DNA of 64,000 bases from a phage. The stretch lies in sequence record PZ295659.1; one strand, given 5' to 3'. Made by a program: the position numbers and the translations under genes. The notes under the pieces are model-generated. The model was given only the letters and a program-made list of their open reading frames with translations, did not search any database and was not told the DNA's origin. Below, in pieces: positions 2 to 33,314 of this stretch; position 1 is the stretch's first letter; every line of letters starts with the position of its first letter.

Positions 2-2497
2 GTTATTGCTCTTGCTTCTCAAGAGCAAGCAAATGTCGATTTAGAAAATGCTCCTGGTAAAGAACTGGCTATTACTCCGGAAACATTAGCAAATCGTACA
101 GCAACTGAAACTCGTCGTGGTATTGCTCGTATTGCAACAACTGCACAAGTTAACCAGAATACCGATTTTGCATTCCAAGACGACTTGATTATTTCTCCTA
201 AGAAATTGAACGAACGTACAGCAACTGAAACCCGTAGAGGTGTTGCTGAAGTTGCAACTCAGGCTGAAACTAATGCTGGAACAGATGACACCACTATTAT
301 TACTCCTAAGAAATTGGATGCCCGTCAAGGTTCTGAAGTTTTATCCGGTATTGTAAAATACACATCTACGACTGGTACTACAGCTGCTACTATTCGCGGT
401 AATGCTGGGACTAACGTTTATAACAAAGCCGTAGATAATTTAACTATTTCTCCAAAGGCTCTTGACCAGTATAAAGCTACCCCTACTCAGCAGGGTGCAG
501 TAATTCTTGCTATTGAAAGTGAAGTTATCGCTGGCGAATCACAAGCCGGTTGGGCTAATGCTGTAGTGACCCCTGAAACTCTGCATAAGAAAACTTCTAC
601 TGATGGACGTATTGGTTTAATTGAAATTGCTACGCAAGCAGAAACTAACACTGGAACTGATTATACTAGAGCAGTAACGCCTAAGACGTTAAATGATAGG
701 AGAGCGACGGAAGGATTATCCGGCATAGCCGAAATTGCTACGCAAGTTGAATTTGATACTGGAACTGACGATACTCGTATCTCGACTCCACTGAAAATTA
801 AAACTCATTTTGATTCTTCTGACCGTACCAGTGTTAATTCTGATTCCGGACTTATTGAAGAAGGAACCTTGTGGAACCATTATACTCTTGATATTTCTAA
901 AGCAAATGAAACACAACGTGGTACACTTCGCGTAGCGACCCAGGCAGAATCTAATGCGGGAACTTTAGATGATGTTCTTATTACTCCTAAAAAGCTTTTA
1001 GGGACTAAGTCCACTGAAACGTCTGAAGGCGTGATTAAGGTTGCTACTCAGGCTGAAACTGTAACAGGAACTTCTGCTAATACTGCTGTATCACCTAAGA
1101 ATTTAAAATGGATTGTTCAATCGGAACCATCCTGGACTGCTACTACGGCAATTCGTGGATTCGTTAAAACTTCATCTGGTTCTATTACATTTGTCGGTGA
1201 CGATACTCAAGGTAATACCCAGGATTTGAATCTTTATGAGAAAAATAGTTATGCTATTTCTCCATATGAATTAAACCGTGTACTTGCTAACTACTTACCG
1301 TTGAAAGCTAAAGCAGCTGATAGTAATTTGTTAGATGGTCTAGATTCTCTTCAGTTCATCCGTAGAGACATCGACCAGACGGTTAATGGTTCTTTAAGTT
1401 TTACTAAACAGACCAACCTGAGTGCTCCTTTAGTATCTACAAGCACTGCTTCTTTTGGTTCCGAAGCATCTGTTACTCGTAGATTAACTCTTAATGACTC
1501 TAGCGGTTCCGAAATAATTTTCACTAAAGGAACCCAATCTCTTAGTAATAAAGAGAATTTCGTTGTTAGAGCATGGGGTAATAGCGCTACAGATGGTGCC
1601 CGTGACACAGTATTTGAAGCGGGTGACGAAACCGGATACCATTTCTATTCTCAGCGCGCTGCTGATAATAGAGTATCATTCAATATTAATGGAACACTTT
1701 ATTCAACAGGTATTGTTTCTACAAATGGATTAAATGTTACAGGTGTTTCTACCTTTACCGGGCCTATTAGTGCTACAGGCGAAATTGTTTCTAGTTCTCC
1801 TATTGCATTCAGAGCTATTAACGGTAACTATGGTGTTATGCTTTATAATGCTGGTAACAGTTCTTATATTGCATTAACTAACTCAGGTGACCAGACCGGG
1901 ACGTTTAATAACTTACGCCCGATCACGATTAACAATGCCACAGGATTAGTTCGTCTTGACAACGGTGTTCAAATCACAAGTGGTGCAACAATAACTACCG
2001 GTGGGTTAACTGTAAATAACAGAATTATTTCTAATGGCGTTAAAACTGCCACTGTTTATACCGATAAACCAACAGCTTCTACTGTAGGTTTTTGGTCTAT
2101 TGACATTAACGATTCTGCTGTATATAGCCAATTCCCTGGATACTGGACGCGTGATAACAAAGGTAACCGTGACCAAGAAATTAAATATCCTGGTACTTTG
2201 ACTCAATTCGGTAATAGCTTAGATTCGCTTTATCAGGATTGGATTTGTTATCCTACAGGTGCAAATGGCGGTAGTATTCGTTATACTCGTACCTGGCAGA
2301 AAAATAAAGATGCTTGGACTTCATTTGCAATGGTATTTGATAGTGGCAACCCACCTTCACCTAGCGATGTCGGTGCTATCCCATCTGATAATGCTGTTAT
2401 TGGAAACCTTACTATTCGAGACTTCTTACAATTAGGAAATGTGAGAATTGTTCCAGACCCGGTTAACAAAACAGTTAAATTTATATGGGTTGAATAA
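2..2497 (+). CDS. 34: Long tail fibre proximal subunit gp34, C-terminal part; frame is open from the window edge so the 5-prime end lies upstream
   Basis: No stop from nt 2 in this frame; degenerate ~35-aa repeats (ATQAE-N-GTDD...ITPKKL); followed by 35-36-37-38-t in T4 order. Confidence 0.8.
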   Translation, partial: VIALASQEQANVDLENAPGKELAITPETLANRTATETRRGIARIATTAQVNQNTDFAFQDDLIISPKKLNERTATETRRGVAEVATQAETNAGTDDTTIITPKKLDARQGSEVLSGIVKYTSTTGTTAATIRGNAGTNVYNKAVDNLTISPKALDQYKATPTQQGAVILAIESEVIAGESQAGWANAVVTPETLHKKTSTDGRIGLIEIATQAETNTGTDYTRAVTPKTLNDRRATEGLSGIAEIATQVEFDTGTDDTRISTPLKIKTHFDSSDRTSVNSDSGLIEEGTLWNHYTLDISKANETQRGTLRVATQAESNAGTLDDVLITPKKLLGTKSTETSEGVIKVATQAETVTGTSANTAVSPKNLKWIVQSEPSWTATTAIRGFVKTSSGSITFVGDDTQGNTQDLNLYEKNSYAISPYELNRVLANYLPLKAKAADSNLLDGLDSLQFIRRDIDQTVNGSLSFTKQTNLSAPLVSTSTASFGSEASVTRRLTLNDSSGSEIIFTKGTQSLSNKENFVVRAWGNSATDGARDTVFEAGDETGYHFYSQRAADNRVSFNINGTLYSTGIVSTNGLNVTGVSTFTGPISATGEIVSSSPIAFRAINGNYGVMLYNAGNSSYIALTNSGDQTGTFNNLRPITINNATGLVRLDNGVQITSGATITTGGLTVNNRIISNGVKTATVYTDKPTASTVGFWSIDINDSAVYSQFPGYWTRDNKGNRDQEIKYPGTLTQFGNSLDSLYQDWICYPTGANGGSIRYTRTWQKNKDAWTSFAMVFDSGNPPSPSDVGAIPSDNAVIGNLTIRDFLQLGNVRIVPDPVNKTVKFIWVE
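100..1090 (+). repeat. Degenerate tandem coding repeats (~105-120 nt units, at least 6 copies) inside gp34
   Basis: Recurring peptide blocks RRGIARIATTAQ / RGVAEVATQAETNAGTDD / IEIATQAETNTGTD / IAEIATQVEFDTGTDD / LRVATQAESNAGT / IKVATQAETVTGT each followed by (I/V)(T/S)PK-L. Confidence 0.7.
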
Positions 2498-3689: not shown

Positions 3690-4346
3690 ATGGCCGATTT
3701 AAAAGCCGGAAGTACAGTTGGTGGTTCCGTCATATGGCATCAAGGCAATTTTCCTTTAATGCCAGCTGGCGACGACATTCTATATAAAACATTTAAATTA
3801 TACACTGAATATAACAAGCCAAAAGCGGCTGATAACGATTTCGTATCTAAAGCAAATGGCGGGACATATCTCAAAAAGGTAATCTTTAACGAAGGTGTTG
3901 CAGTCAAAACAGCAGATGACCAAACGAATGGTATTTTTTCTGGTGGTGGTGACGCCGCGACATTCGACCAAACAAACATGGATATTGTTTCGTGGTATGG
4001 TATTGGGTTTAAAACATCTCAAGGTACAGGTGAAAGAACTGTTGTAATTGATACTCGCACCGGTAATATAAGTTCTAAAGGCGTTATTGAAGCATCTCAA
4101 TTCAGAGCCACAACGTTAGCACCTTTAAATAATTACGACCTTACTCGCAAAGATTATGTTGATAGTCAAATAAATACAGTTAATGCTAATGCAAACAGTC
4201 GTGTACTCCGTTCAGGAGATACGATGACCGGCGCGCTAACCGCCCCAAATTTTTTCTCACAGAATCCTGCATCTCAACCATCGCATGTTCCACGATTTGA
4301 CCAAATTGTTATTAAGGATTCTGTTCAAGATTTCGGCTATTATTAA
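3690..4346 (+). CDS. 36: Long tail fibre distal connector gp36
   Basis: 218 aa; MADLKAGSTVGGSVIWHQGNFPL... and C-terminal ...SQPSHVPRFDQIVIKDSVQDFGYY match remembered T4 gp36. Confidence 0.9.
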   Translation: MADLKAGSTVGGSVIWHQGNFPLMPAGDDILYKTFKLYTEYNKPKAADNDFVSKANGGTYLKKVIFNEGVAVKTADDQTNGIFSGGGDAATFDQTNMDIVSWYGIGFKTSQGTGERTVVIDTRTGNISSKGVIEASQFRATTLAPLNNYDLTRKDYVDSQINTVNANANSRVLRSGDTMTGALTAPNFFSQNPASQPSHVPRFDQIVIKDSVQDFGYY

Positions 4347-14989: not shown

Positions 14990-15547
14990 TTAAAGATGAA
15001 GATACCACCCGTTGTAGTTGCTCTTGCGGACGATTTTCTTTAGGTCTTCATGGTCTCCCACGAACTTTATAGAATAAGAGAAGACGTCAGGTGAGGTTTC
15101 TTTGACATCTAATATAATAATGCAATCTGCGACTCGATGGTTCAAGAAGGGCCCTATATTGATTCCATTACCACCCGGATAATCACCACTGTATCCTGTG
15201 GTAACCGAAATCCATTTAGAATCTATCTGGTGTGTCTTGACTTCTACACGAATTCCACAATACTTGGGATGGGCTAACACGTCCCATGCATACGTGTACG
15301 GGTCTTCTACGTCTTCAATACCTTTATTAACATATCCGTCTAGCCAATTTGCTACTACATACTCTGCAAAGACCGCAACCTTACAACGTCGAACTACATC
15401 TTCTTTGTTTTGGCCAGGATTTTGGCTCAGGGAATACCGAGCAGTATCAGCGATCTTCACCTTCATTTCACTAGTCAAAAACTCATTCGACAGGATAAAT
15501 GTCGGAAGATTCTTCAGTCTCAACAGTCCCAAGTTCGTCTTTACCAT
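14990..15547 (-). CDS. denB: Hypothetical protein in the position and size range of endonuclease IV (DenB)
   Basis: Start taken at internal ATG 15547 (SD agagg), giving about 185 aa as T4 DenB; assignment by synteny between ndd and rIIB only. Confidence 0.4.
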   Translation of the reverse strand: MVKTNLGLLRLKNLPTFILSNEFLTSEMKVKIADTARYSLSQNPGQNKEDVVRRCKVAVFAEYVVANWLDGYVNKGIEDVEDPYTYAWDVLAHPKYCGIRVEVKTHQIDSKWISVTTGYSGDYPGGNGINIGPFLNHRVADCIIILDVKETSPDVFSYSIKFVGDHEDLKKIVRKSNYNGWYLHL

Positions 15548-30625: not shown

Positions 30626-30642
30626 TGTAGAAACAAAAAAAA

Positions 30643-30662
30643 AGGAATCCCGAAGGATTCCT
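30643..30662 (-). terminator. UUCG-tetraloop hairpin (AGGAAUCC-UUCG-GGAUUCCU) + U9 after soc
   Basis: 8-bp stem, UUCG loop, nine-U tail on the minus transcript, 8 nt after the soc stop. Confidence 0.7.
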
Positions 30663-30669
30663 TAAATTA

Positions 30670-30951: not shown

Positions 30952-31473
30952 TTAGTAACCATTATCCTGGCGTTCAAAGTTGTGTTGGTTTTTCAGGTAA
31001 TACAGTTTGAAGATTTCTTCAGCAGAAAGTCCTAGACCTTGGAACATATTTAGAACGAAATGCAGAATATCAATCATTTCAAATTTAATTTCAAGCTGGT
31101 CTTCAGGAGACAGTTCATCGATACGACGATTTCGATATTCAGCATGTTGTGCCTTCCACGGCTTCCATACAGAGCTAGCGGCTTTTTCACCATTGCTCAT
31201 ACCACCAAGTGAAGTCAGCAGTTCACGGAATTCATCATCAATATAATCTTTCTGATTACGCAGCCAGTCAACAACATCACCAGCAGTAGCCAATTCATCA
31301 GGATGTTTGTTATGTTCAGGCTTGTCATTTGCCAGACGAACCTGTAAAGATTTCTGCATATCAAGCATTACCTGCAGAGGGTCTTTATCTTCGTGAATCA
31401 GAGCATTAAAATAAGCTTCTTCTGCTTTATCAACACCAGAAATAAGTTGTGAACATTCGTTAAAGTGCGCCAT
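30952..31473 (-). CDS. 56: dCTP pyrophosphatase gp56
   Basis: Start at ATG 31473 (MAHFNEC...), SD aaagga; MazG-like; between soc and gp61 as in T4. Confidence 0.75.
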   Translation of the reverse strand: MAHFNECSQLISGVDKAEEAYFNALIHEDKDPLQVMLDMQKSLQVRLANDKPEHNKHPDELATAGDVVDWLRNQKDYIDDEFRELLTSLGGMSNGEKAASSVWKPWKAQHAEYRNRRIDELSPEDQLEIKFEMIDILHFVLNMFQGLGLSAEEIFKLYYLKNQHNFERQDNGY

Positions 31474-31563
31474 TATTTTTCCTTTCAATTCAGTATAAGA
31501 GAAGTTAATTCTAACATTAATTTTATAAAGCGTAATAAATAATAAGGTAACTAAGGAGATATT

Positions 31564-31761
31564 ATGTTTAAACTTCCATCGTTAATCAACGCTATTAAAG
31601 GCAATAAAAAGAAAACTGCTATCGCTGCAATAGTTGTAGGTGGCATTATTTCATGGAACTTTGGGATTGCACCATTGTTAGTTGCCCATGGTGTTATGGT
31701 TCCTTCTGTTCCATTGGATACTGTAGTTGATTTGGCCTTTGCTATTATAGGGCTTGTTTAA
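31564..31761 (+). CDS. Small membrane protein on the opposite strand (65 aa, two predicted TM segments)
   Basis: Strong SD taaggag 7 nt before ATG; hydrophobic IAAIVVGGIISW and VDLAFAIIGLV; the only plus-strand candidate gene inside the minus-strand run. Confidence 0.45.
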   Translation: MFKLPSLINAIKGNKKKTAIAAIVVGGIISWNFGIAPLLVAHGVMVPSVPLDTVVDLAFAIIGLV

Positions 31762-32780
31762 ATCTTAGAATAACGAGATAATCTCATTTTAGCATGCAAC
31801 CCACTTGAAATATTCTGTTTCATATATTCTAAAATTTCTTGTGGTGTTGCATTTTCTTTCATTACCATATCATTCACATCCTTTGATCTCCATGGAGCTC
31901 GGTCCCAGAACATGACACGTTCGCCTGCATCAACTAATCGCTTCATGCGAGCTATAGTATCCGGATGCCTAGGTTCATTATCCATTACCCATACCCGACG
32001 TTCTTTAAATGGTACCACATCTAAATCTATTGAGCCGCCTGTAATAGCGATTGCATTGGGTATGAATAAACTATCAATAGGGCCTTCCATTACCCAGACG
32101 TCTCCTTCCTTAACACGTTCAACACCATAAATTTTTGTTGCAGACTCAAACGCTTTAATAGTGATATATTTCTGAGGAGCATCTTTACGAAGTGCACGTC
32201 CTTGGAATGACTCGGCCTTCCCATCTTTATTAAAAATAGGAATCACTAAACGTGGTTCTGGAATCTCTTTCTTATACGTACCAGGTTGAATCTTGTTGAC
32301 CAATTTGGGCCATTCTAATGTGAACCATAATCTGTTCCATGATTCTTTAGGAATGCATCGAGACTTAACATATTTCACAATAGGATGCTCTTCAGGCAGC
32401 TTGTCCAGACGAGAACAAGACGGCAAAGAATTTATAGTCTTTTTCTCCGGTTCTGGTTTATGTTCAGGAACCTTTTCAATCTTTGGTTCCATTCTAGCTT
32501 TTTCTTTACGAACTTCCATTAGATATTCGCGGTAAAGCTCTTCATCATACTCTTTTAAGTATCCGGAAATTGTATTGTGGTATTGACAATTATAGCAATG
32601 TACATTACCAGGAGTACCGCCATAATACCATCCACGAGCTTTCATTACATCTGTCTGGGAGTCGCCACAAACTGGACAACGAAATGTTAATTTAAATGTG
32701 CTTGAATTATTGATTTGTCTAAAACGAGGTAGGTGAGAAAACGCACGATAAGCAAATTCATTATCTATCCATTCAGCCAT
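31758..32780 (-). CDS. 61: DNA primase gp61
   Basis: 340 aa; N-terminal zinc-binding CPVCGDS...CYNCQYH and Toprim region; size as T4 gp61. Confidence 0.9.
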   Translation of the reverse strand: MAEWIDNEFAYRAFSHLPRFRQINNSSTFKLTFRCPVCGDSQTDVMKARGWYYGGTPGNVHCYNCQYHNTISGYLKEYDEELYREYLMEVRKEKARMEPKIEKVPEHKPEPEKKTINSLPSCSRLDKLPEEHPIVKYVKSRCIPKESWNRLWFTLEWPKLVNKIQPGTYKKEIPEPRLVIPIFNKDGKAESFQGRALRKDAPQKYITIKAFESATKIYGVERVKEGDVWVMEGPIDSLFIPNAIAITGGSIDLDVVPFKERRVWVMDNEPRHPDTIARMKRLVDAGERVMFWDRAPWRSKDVNDMVMKENATPQEILEYMKQNISSGLHAKMRLSRYSKI

Positions 32781-32819: not shown

Positions 32820-33314
32820 TCACAACTTATTAATATTTACTTTAATTCGCTTTCTTTTCTTGGAAGGAATTTGTTCTGGACCTTTATTTACGACTGCACC
32901 TGTAGTTGTTCCTGATGCAATAGCTTGAGGACTACCGCCTGAATCACCAGCAACCATATCCTCAAATAAAGGGAGTTCTTTAAATATTTCTTTCTGTTGT
33001 TCTTCCGTAATGTTATAGCGTGAAGCTACAGCACTCCAGGCAGACATCATTGAGGCCATTCCATTAAGACCTGGAACAGTGCTCATCATTCGCTTCATTG
33101 AACGAACTGAAGCATGAAAAGGTGTATAAGCCGCTTTCTCTTCGGGAGTAGAAGGACGTTTAAGAACACTTCCACGTTCATCGATGATTTTGGCTTCGTA
33201 TGCTTTCCATTCGGTAAAAGGTTTTTGCATTAGTCGAATAAACTTATATGCATAAACAGAATCTATTGCAGTGTTAATAATACCCATAGGTACCTCCTGA
33301 GTATATTTAATCAA
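32820..33314 (-). CDS. Hypothetical protein
   Basis: 164-aa ORF. Confidence 0.5.
   Translation of the reverse strand: MIKYTQEVPMGIINTAIDSVYAYKFIRLMQKPFTEWKAYEAKIIDERGSVLKRPSTPEEKAAYTPFHASVRSMKRMMSTVPGLNGMASMMSAWSAVASRYNITEEQQKEIFKELPLFEDMVAGDSGGSPQAIASGTTTGAVVNKGPEQIPSKKRKRIKVNINKL

Follow-up and report, generated by a model that had tools for sequence, protein, structure and literature searches.

A conserved small membrane-protein gene of T-even phages, encoded opposite genes 56 and 61 and preceded by a candidate late promoter

The T-even phages encode several small, non-essential accessory proteins that are located in the envelope, namely Imm, Sp, RI and Ac; among their genes, imm and sp are early genes. 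A second useful comparison is with soc and gene 49, which lie inside an early/middle-transcribed region and each have a TATAAATA-type late promoter motif ~20–30 nt upstream of the ATG. A third is with the holins, which include the T protein of T4, the class II holins and pinholins such as S21-68. T4-type late genes are recognized by a TATAAATA-type box whose start site falls ahead of the Shine-Dalgarno sequence, and they require no -35 element. In T4 this box occupies positions -13 to -6, with 32 of the 50 listed sites being perfect, and the commonest T4 variant is an A at -13, which is seen in 9 of the 50 listed late promoters (PMC2988020). In RB69 and its relatives the T at -13 is poorly conserved, and either A or T is common at this position (PMC1524935).

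Here we analyze a 64,000-nt stretch of phage DNA (PZ295659.1; hereafter the window), in which a small open reading frame (ORF) can be compared with each of these systems. The ORF codes for a product that is similar in kind to Imm, Sp, RI and Ac, and imm and sp lie only a few kb away in the same block. However, these two genes are on the early strand, whereas the ORF is on the other strand and is preceded by a late-type promoter candidate. No sequence similarity to Imm, Sp, RI or Ac was seen: the family profile HMM, searched against all six-frame ORFs, has no other match in the window, and no paralog of the ORF was recovered there. The ORF shares with soc and gene 49 the type and placement of the promoter motif, but those genes are on the same strand as their early neighbors, while the ORF is on the opposite strand, converges on gene 61 and is predicted to be transcribed late.

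The ORF spans positions 31564..31761 on the plus strand, begins with an ATG and codes for 65 amino acids followed by a stop codon (translation: MFKLPSLINAIKGNKKKTAIAAIVVGGIISWNFGIAPLLVAHGVMVPSVPLDTVVDLAFAIIGLV), which agrees in every respect with the initial annotation. The strong Shine-Dalgarno sequence that had been reported there is also present, as AAGGAG at 31553-31558, 5 nt 5' of the ATG. The flanking-gene coordinates confirm that it is placed between genes 56 and 61, antisense to the surrounding gene flow: gene 56 (dCTPase, phrog_173; 30952..31473) lies to the left on the minus strand, with its ATG start taken from the RB69 annotation, and gene 61 (DNA primase, phrog_47; 31758..32780), also on the minus strand, lies to the right and is convergent with the ORF. 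The gap between them is real, although with the gene 56 ATG at 31473 it measures 284 nt rather than the 270 nt given earlier. In this gap the ORF is the sole sizeable plus-strand reading frame, and its stop codon overlaps that of gene 61, the two sharing the tetranucleotide TTAA. The program-made list of reading frames starts gene 56 at a TTG at 31488 (178 aa); the ATG at 31473 (173 aa, MAHFNEC...) fits RB69 and all relatives. Elsewhere in the neighborhood, just downstream of soc, the minus strand contains a strong intrinsic-terminator-like hairpin, with a 9 bp stem followed by a T-run (30642-30663).

The source of the window is evidently an RB69-like T-even phage (Mosigvirus), and the ~2 kb surrounding the ORF show 98-99% identity to many Mosigvirus genomes. 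The product matches the phrog_2024 profile over its entire length (E 2.6e-27; residues 1-65 aligned to positions 1-65 of the 65 in the profile), phrog_2024 being a PHROG of unknown function. In RB69 the same gene is annotated at the identical position and strand as RB69ORF029w (NP_861719), and the product is 100% identical to annotated hypothetical proteins from phages mobillu, SF and JK45; indeed, "hypothetical protein" is the label used in most Mosigvirus records. Going by these matches, the ORF is an already catalogued, uncharacterized small membrane-protein gene of T4-like phages. To this the present analysis adds the late-promoter motif, a single-pass reading of the product, the recognition of two paralogous forms, which we term type A (that of the window) and type B, and the identification of unannotated copies in T4 and JS10.

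TBLASTN searches with the type A ORF recovered 693 phage records, including T4, with 686 of these matching at 80% coverage or more. The T4 copy (NC_000866, 17738-17938, plus strand; L002 4239..4439) codes for 66 aa with 55% identity, and lies between dam and gene 61 in a gap of 309 nt, its stop overlapping that of gene 61 as in the window. This gap is unannotated in both T4 references (AF158101.6 and NC_000866.4), while a re-annotated T4 clone labels the homologous ORF as hypothetical. The type B form occupies the same place and strand in Dhakavirus and in Klebsiella T-even phages, with queries of the JS10 and Klebsiella phage Mexia forms recovering 132 and 212 records respectively. The copy in the Dhakavirus JS10 (66 aa; NC_012741, about 15341..15541; L033 2529..2729) lies in a gap of ~300 nt and is omitted from the NC_012741 annotation; that of Mexia is 63 aa long. 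The unannotated T4 and JS10 copies are both intact and have the same arrangement of promoter and Shine-Dalgarno sequence. Profile-profile comparison of types A and B with hhalign aligned a core corresponding to residues 19-58 (Prob 96%, E 2e-9), and the T4, P8, JS10 and Mexia forms all match phrog_2024 at E <= 4e-24.

In VR26-like Gapriverviruses both forms are present in tandem, 8 nt apart (1201..1398 and 1407..1607 in L013 and L017). The B copy is frameshifted or truncated in the VR20- and CJ20-like phages (L018 1465..1605), and in Yersinia phage P8 a 34-aa ORF (L006 2715..2816) corresponds to the C-terminal half of a B copy. This P8 remnant adjoins an inserted homing-endonuclease gene and has been mis-annotated as a "DNA packaging ATPase". 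The strand of the ORF and its place between genes 56 and 61 are retained despite several neighboring insertions in this interval, namely dam in T4 (L002), a homing-endonuclease gene in fPS-2 (L003), another between the ORF and gene 61 in P8 (L006), and an HNH endonuclease gene in Klebsiella phage Mexia (L034). The interval is in effect an insertion hot spot on either side of the ORF, with the ORF itself being spared in all four. A Winklervirus, the Karamvirus Pet-CM3-4, and Aeromonas and Acinetobacter T4-like phages have no such ORF at this site. When 1.8 billion representative proteins were searched exhaustively with a profile, only two 50%-identity clusters matched, indicating that the family is narrow; a word-indexed search recovered only close relatives, and the family is seen solely in T-even phages of enterobacterial hosts. 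The broken copies, namely that of phage a48 (see below) and the type B ones of VR20, CJ20 and P8, along with the absence of the gene from some T4-like phages, suggest that it is dispensable. Conservation combined with occasional duplication, breakage or absence is the usual signature of a non-essential gene involved in host interaction or timing.

To assess coding constraint, 30 related loci were fetched from phage records, IMG/VR and metagenomes. The reading frame is intact in 29 of them. The exception is phage a48 (L008, 2483..2608), with a one-base deletion after an A5 run. No other type A copy in this set is broken, and the deletion could be a sequencing error at the homopolymer, in which case the copy would be no real pseudogene. 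Additionally, one T4 record matches the ORF query in two pieces in TBLASTN. Disruption of the frame in close relatives had been named at the outset as an observation that would speak against the ORF; these two cases are the only breaks seen, and the comparison favors a gene. Variable sites are distributed over the first, second and third codon positions as 6/1/18 in Mosigvirus, 9/3/14 in Tequatrovirus and 13/4/12 in the Gaprivervirus-like group. Summed over Mosigvirus pairs, the pN/pS of the ORF is 0.151, while genes 61 and 56 give 0.021 and 0.070 respectively at the same loci, with pS being ~0.13 for both the ORF and gene 61; the within-clade dN/dS of the ORF is 0.16-0.25. These substitution patterns show purifying selection on the plus-strand frame, weaker than that acting on the essential enzymes encoded by genes 56 and 61, and the ORF is a genuine gene, far more than a chance reading frame. 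The reading of the locus as a real, separately expressed small membrane-protein gene opposite early/middle genes is thus supported by comparative sequence analysis.

Expression from the plus strand in this setting would need a promoter of its own, and the initial annotation reported that none could be found by consensus. This claim does not hold, since a promoter candidate, the T4-type late promoter variant AATAAATA (corresponding to positions -13 to -6), is present at 31534..31541 on the plus strand, 22 nt upstream of the ATG, with an implied start site near 31547. The core heptamer ATAAATA is ~4-fold depleted in the window, occurring at eight sites on both strands against 29.7 +/- 5.1 expected in shuffles (plus strand: 3657, 4170, 8409, 9127, 20745 and 31535; minus strand: 30944 and 62837). 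Five of the eight lie 21-31 nt 5' of a gene start in the correct orientation, and the starts thus served are those of a tail-fiber gene (3690), the holin gene t (8437), soc (30906), gene 49 (62801) and the ORF itself. The site of t is a perfect TATAAATA, while gene 49 (62837, minus strand) has the same AATAAATA variant as the ORF. The three sites at 4170, 9127 and 20745 have no obvious downstream gene.

The motif accompanies the gene across the family. Every family copy that stands first in line has ATAAATA at a distance of 12-22 nt 5' of its ATG, all related loci have GGAG 5-8 nt ahead of the ATG, and the two together are retained across Mosigvirus, T4, the fPS-2-type phages, Gaprivervirus, P8, JS10 and Mexia. 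Further upstream the lineages have unrelated sequences, and the heptamer is also kept in loci with an entirely different upstream neighbor. The second gene of the tandem A/B pair lacks it, which fits with the pair forming an operon. For the Klebsiella form, just 12 nt separate the ATG from the nearest ATAAATA, too few for a leader with a Shine-Dalgarno sequence, so that this form would have to use a second copy located 33 nt upstream. The base at -13 varies between lineages (A, G or C), and as the consensus T occurs in none of them the promoter may be a weak one. With a box of the TATAAATA type lying upstream of the Shine-Dalgarno sequence, as in T4-type late genes, the conserved motif suggests that the gene can be assigned to the late class.

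On the minus strand, a MotA-type middle-promoter-like site for gene 56 (GCTTTA-N12-TAGAAT, 31508..31531) lies ~35 nt upstream of the gene 56 ATG. The corresponding pattern, GCTTYA-N11-13-TANNNT, is ~5-fold enriched in the window (28 occurrences against 5.4 +/- 2.4 expected), and the fPS-2 record has a predicted middle promoter annotated at the same relative place. The spacer thus has the look of two promoters set back to back, of the middle type for the minus strand and of the late type for the plus strand.

It may be asked whether the gene, though real, is not late at all, and is instead transcribed early or in the middle period from an unrecognized promoter, or expressed by read-through only. 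The promoter has been assigned by motif, every lineage departs from the consensus at -13, and the site is not among the 31 late promoters of RB69 identified with the HMM of Nolan et al. Against this, a search upstream of the ORF found no sigma-70-like promoter on the plus strand, and ATAAATA follows the ORF through differing upstream contexts while being otherwise avoided in the genome. We accordingly regard non-late expression as unlikely. A survey of the literature on T4 ribosome profiling, start-site mapping, CRISPRi-ART/HIDEN-SEQ and antisense RNA-seq yielded nothing on this locus, whether on transcript, protein or phenotype.

The predicted protein can be divided into three segments. 1) Residues 1-17 (31564..31614) are predicted to form an amphipathic N-terminal helix ending in the basic cluster KGNKKK, as judged from the hydrophobic moment, the charge and a helix at 3-11 in the AlphaFold2 model. 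2) Residues 18-42 (31615..31689) form the one clear transmembrane (TM) helix, supported by both hydropathy and the AlphaFold2 model, with an invariant W31-N32-F33 and P37. 3) Residues 43-65 (31690..31758) comprise a conserved turn of the form G-(V/I)-x-(V/L)-P-x-V-x-(L/M)-(D/E), followed by a short hydrophobic, acidic helix at 51-62. The hydropathy maximum falls at residues 19-40, and the model as a whole (built from 8 sequences, pLDDT 79) places helices at 3-11, 15-41 and 51-62, residues 42-50 being a loop. A single TM segment, at 21-41, had also been predicted by Nolan et al. 2006. The initial annotation described two hydrophobic segments and proposed a topology prediction; both segments are present and a membrane helix is indeed predicted, but only residues ~18-42 resemble a membrane-spanning helix. 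The second segment (~45-65) contains P47, P50 and the conserved acidic positions D52 and D56, its modeled helix is only 12 residues long and its insertion energy, crudely estimated, is unfavorable. The protein is better read, on the basis of the model, as one TM helix plus a short C-terminal hydrophobic, acidic helix than as a two-TM protein.

Conservation within type A includes K3, L4, L7, A10, K12, G13, K16, W31, N32, F33, P37 and G43, and, in the C-terminal part, P47, V55, D56, A60, G63 and L64; in the N-terminal part K3, K12, G13 and K16 are invariant across the type. Type B likewise retains W31, N32 and P37, and the core common to both types can be written as W-N-x(4)-P-x(4)-[HQ]-G-x(3)-P-x(3)-[LM]-[DE]. 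No basic residue occurs after position 17, and the chain ends in ...DLAFAIIGLV. By the positive-inside rule the N-terminus would be cytoplasmic, and the acidic, proline-rich tail would then lie on the periplasmic side or at the membrane interface. A buried Asn often drives the association of helices with each other, and hence the protein may plausibly form an oligomer or have a partner in the membrane. No match was obtained when three or more members of the family were scanned against Pfam, NCBIfam and PADLOC, a sequence profile search of the PDB returned nothing at E <= 10, and Foldseek found no fold match in the PDB.

The likeness to holins noted at the outset lies in the product being a small membrane protein that is probably late, and the question arises whether it is itself a holin or a pinholin-like lysis protein. 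It has at least one TM domain in a small protein (~residues 18-42), as holins do, and the polar residues in and after this helix (the TM Asn, followed by Asp or Glu) could line a pore. Furthermore, a fold search of BFVD, which returned family members only, had as its best structural match a 63-aa member of the family from phage vB_EcoM_OE5505 that is named "Holin". However, this name is an annotation only, with no experiment found behind it, and no holin family in Pfam or NCBIfam is matched. The protein departs from holins in two defining features. Firstly, its C-terminus is hydrophobic, in place of the hydrophilic, highly charged tail that is expected of them. Secondly, the gene lies outside the lysis cassette, linked to neither an endolysin nor a spanin gene and flanked instead by the dCTPase and primase genes (56 and 61), and it is not the only holin candidate, as the phage already has a T-type holin gene, t, elsewhere (8437), with its perfect TATAAATA. 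The second hydrophobic segment also seems too short and too proline-rich to span the membrane, which would leave one credible TM helix. A holin function is thus improbable.

Given that no plus-strand terminator was found downstream of the ORF up to position 33000, a late transcript would continue into gene 61 as antisense RNA. An alternative is then that the RNA is the main product, acting as a late antisense to the gene 61 mRNA or to the RNA reading through from gene 61 to gene 56, with the peptide being incidental. The convergence with gene 61 and the overlapping stops are in keeping with such a role, and in T4 certain sites are known to be transcribed from both strands, at different times. 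However, selection acts on the protein sequence (pN/pS 0.15, with a third-position bias) and the strong Shine-Dalgarno sequence is conserved. Moreover, the homing-endonuclease gene in P8, and the second paralog in phages with tandem copies, separate the ORF from gene 61, which implies that antisense pairing with gene 61 is not conserved. An RNA function is therefore quite improbable, and transcription into gene 61 may be a side-effect rather than the function of the locus.

The remaining alternative, that this is a chance ORF in a spacer conserved on account of signals on the minus strand (the terminator of gene 61, the promoter of gene 56, or the oriA region), draws on the homologous stretch being unannotated in the canonical T4 records, on the middle-promoter-like site that abuts the ORF and on a minus-strand terminator-like hairpin overlapping codons 6-13 in T4-type sequences (-8.9 kcal/mol, z -2.8), but it is effectively refuted by a substitution pattern that shows purifying selection on the plus-strand frame, with the codon-position bias and a pN/pS well below 1 holding along the whole ORF, by the retention of the frame across clades sharing only 45-55% amino-acid identity, by the existence of tandem paralogs, and by the hairpin being absent from the window (z +0.9) even though the peptide is conserved there. 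A terminator within the ORF as the cause of its conservation is likewise rejected, being present in the T4-type sequences and absent from the window.

The T4-type hairpin, which is followed by a U-run, lies at L002 4225-4290 on the minus strand, the equivalent of 31550-31615 (minus strand) in the window, and is annotated as a terminator in the fPS-2 record. It would be expected to end the transcripts of gene 61, and with no such hairpin in the Mosigvirus window, the genera may differ in their read-through from gene 61 to gene 56.

Taken together, these observations favor the reading of the ORF as an accessory T-even gene that is transcribed late and codes for a single-pass inner-membrane protein with a non-essential role in the envelope late in infection, to which, taken as a whole, we assign a probability of roughly 0.7. 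According to this proposal, the late form of the host RNA polymerase, with gp55, gp33 and the gp45 clamp, would initiate at ~31547 from the variant promoter AATAAATA, yielding a short leader that carries the strong Shine-Dalgarno sequence. The 65-residue product would then insert into the inner membrane in a single pass, with its basic N-terminus in the cytoplasm, the invariant Trp-Asn and the Pro within the TM helix, and the conserved proline-rich, acidic tail at the periplasmic face. The protein might then function in the envelope late in infection by way of contacts made in or close to the membrane, while the late RNA would at the same time be complementary to the primase mRNA at its 3' end. 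The suggestion of a non-essential late envelope role comes from the predicted late timing and membrane location, the combination of conservation with loss and duplication, and the confinement of the family to T-even phages of enterobacteria. As to the specific role, lysis timing, lysis inhibition or late superinfection exclusion are tentative candidates, put forward with low confidence from timing, location and phyletic pattern.

A bolder version of this idea, which we consider rather doubtful, is that this overlooked late gene of T4 codes for a membrane-embedded regulator of the lysis clock or of lysis inhibition, or for a late-acting blocker of superinfection or of host defenses that act at the membrane. 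As a regulator of lysis, its target could possibly be the single TM helix of the holin T. If this were true, such a membrane-embedded regulator would be a missing component of a classic system that is supposed to be complete.

As a sequence feature the ORF is ordinary, and automatic annotation picks it up as a hypothetical gene in most T-even genomes. However, the T4 (AF158101/NC_000866) and JS10 references omit it, with the consequence that studies based on those gene lists would miss a conserved gene of the best-studied phage. The probable assignment to the late class would narrow the search for its function to assembly, lysis control and the exclusion period. It would place the product among the few late, membrane-located T-even proteins that are yet to be assigned a role, and the small size of the gene should make it easy to delete or tag.
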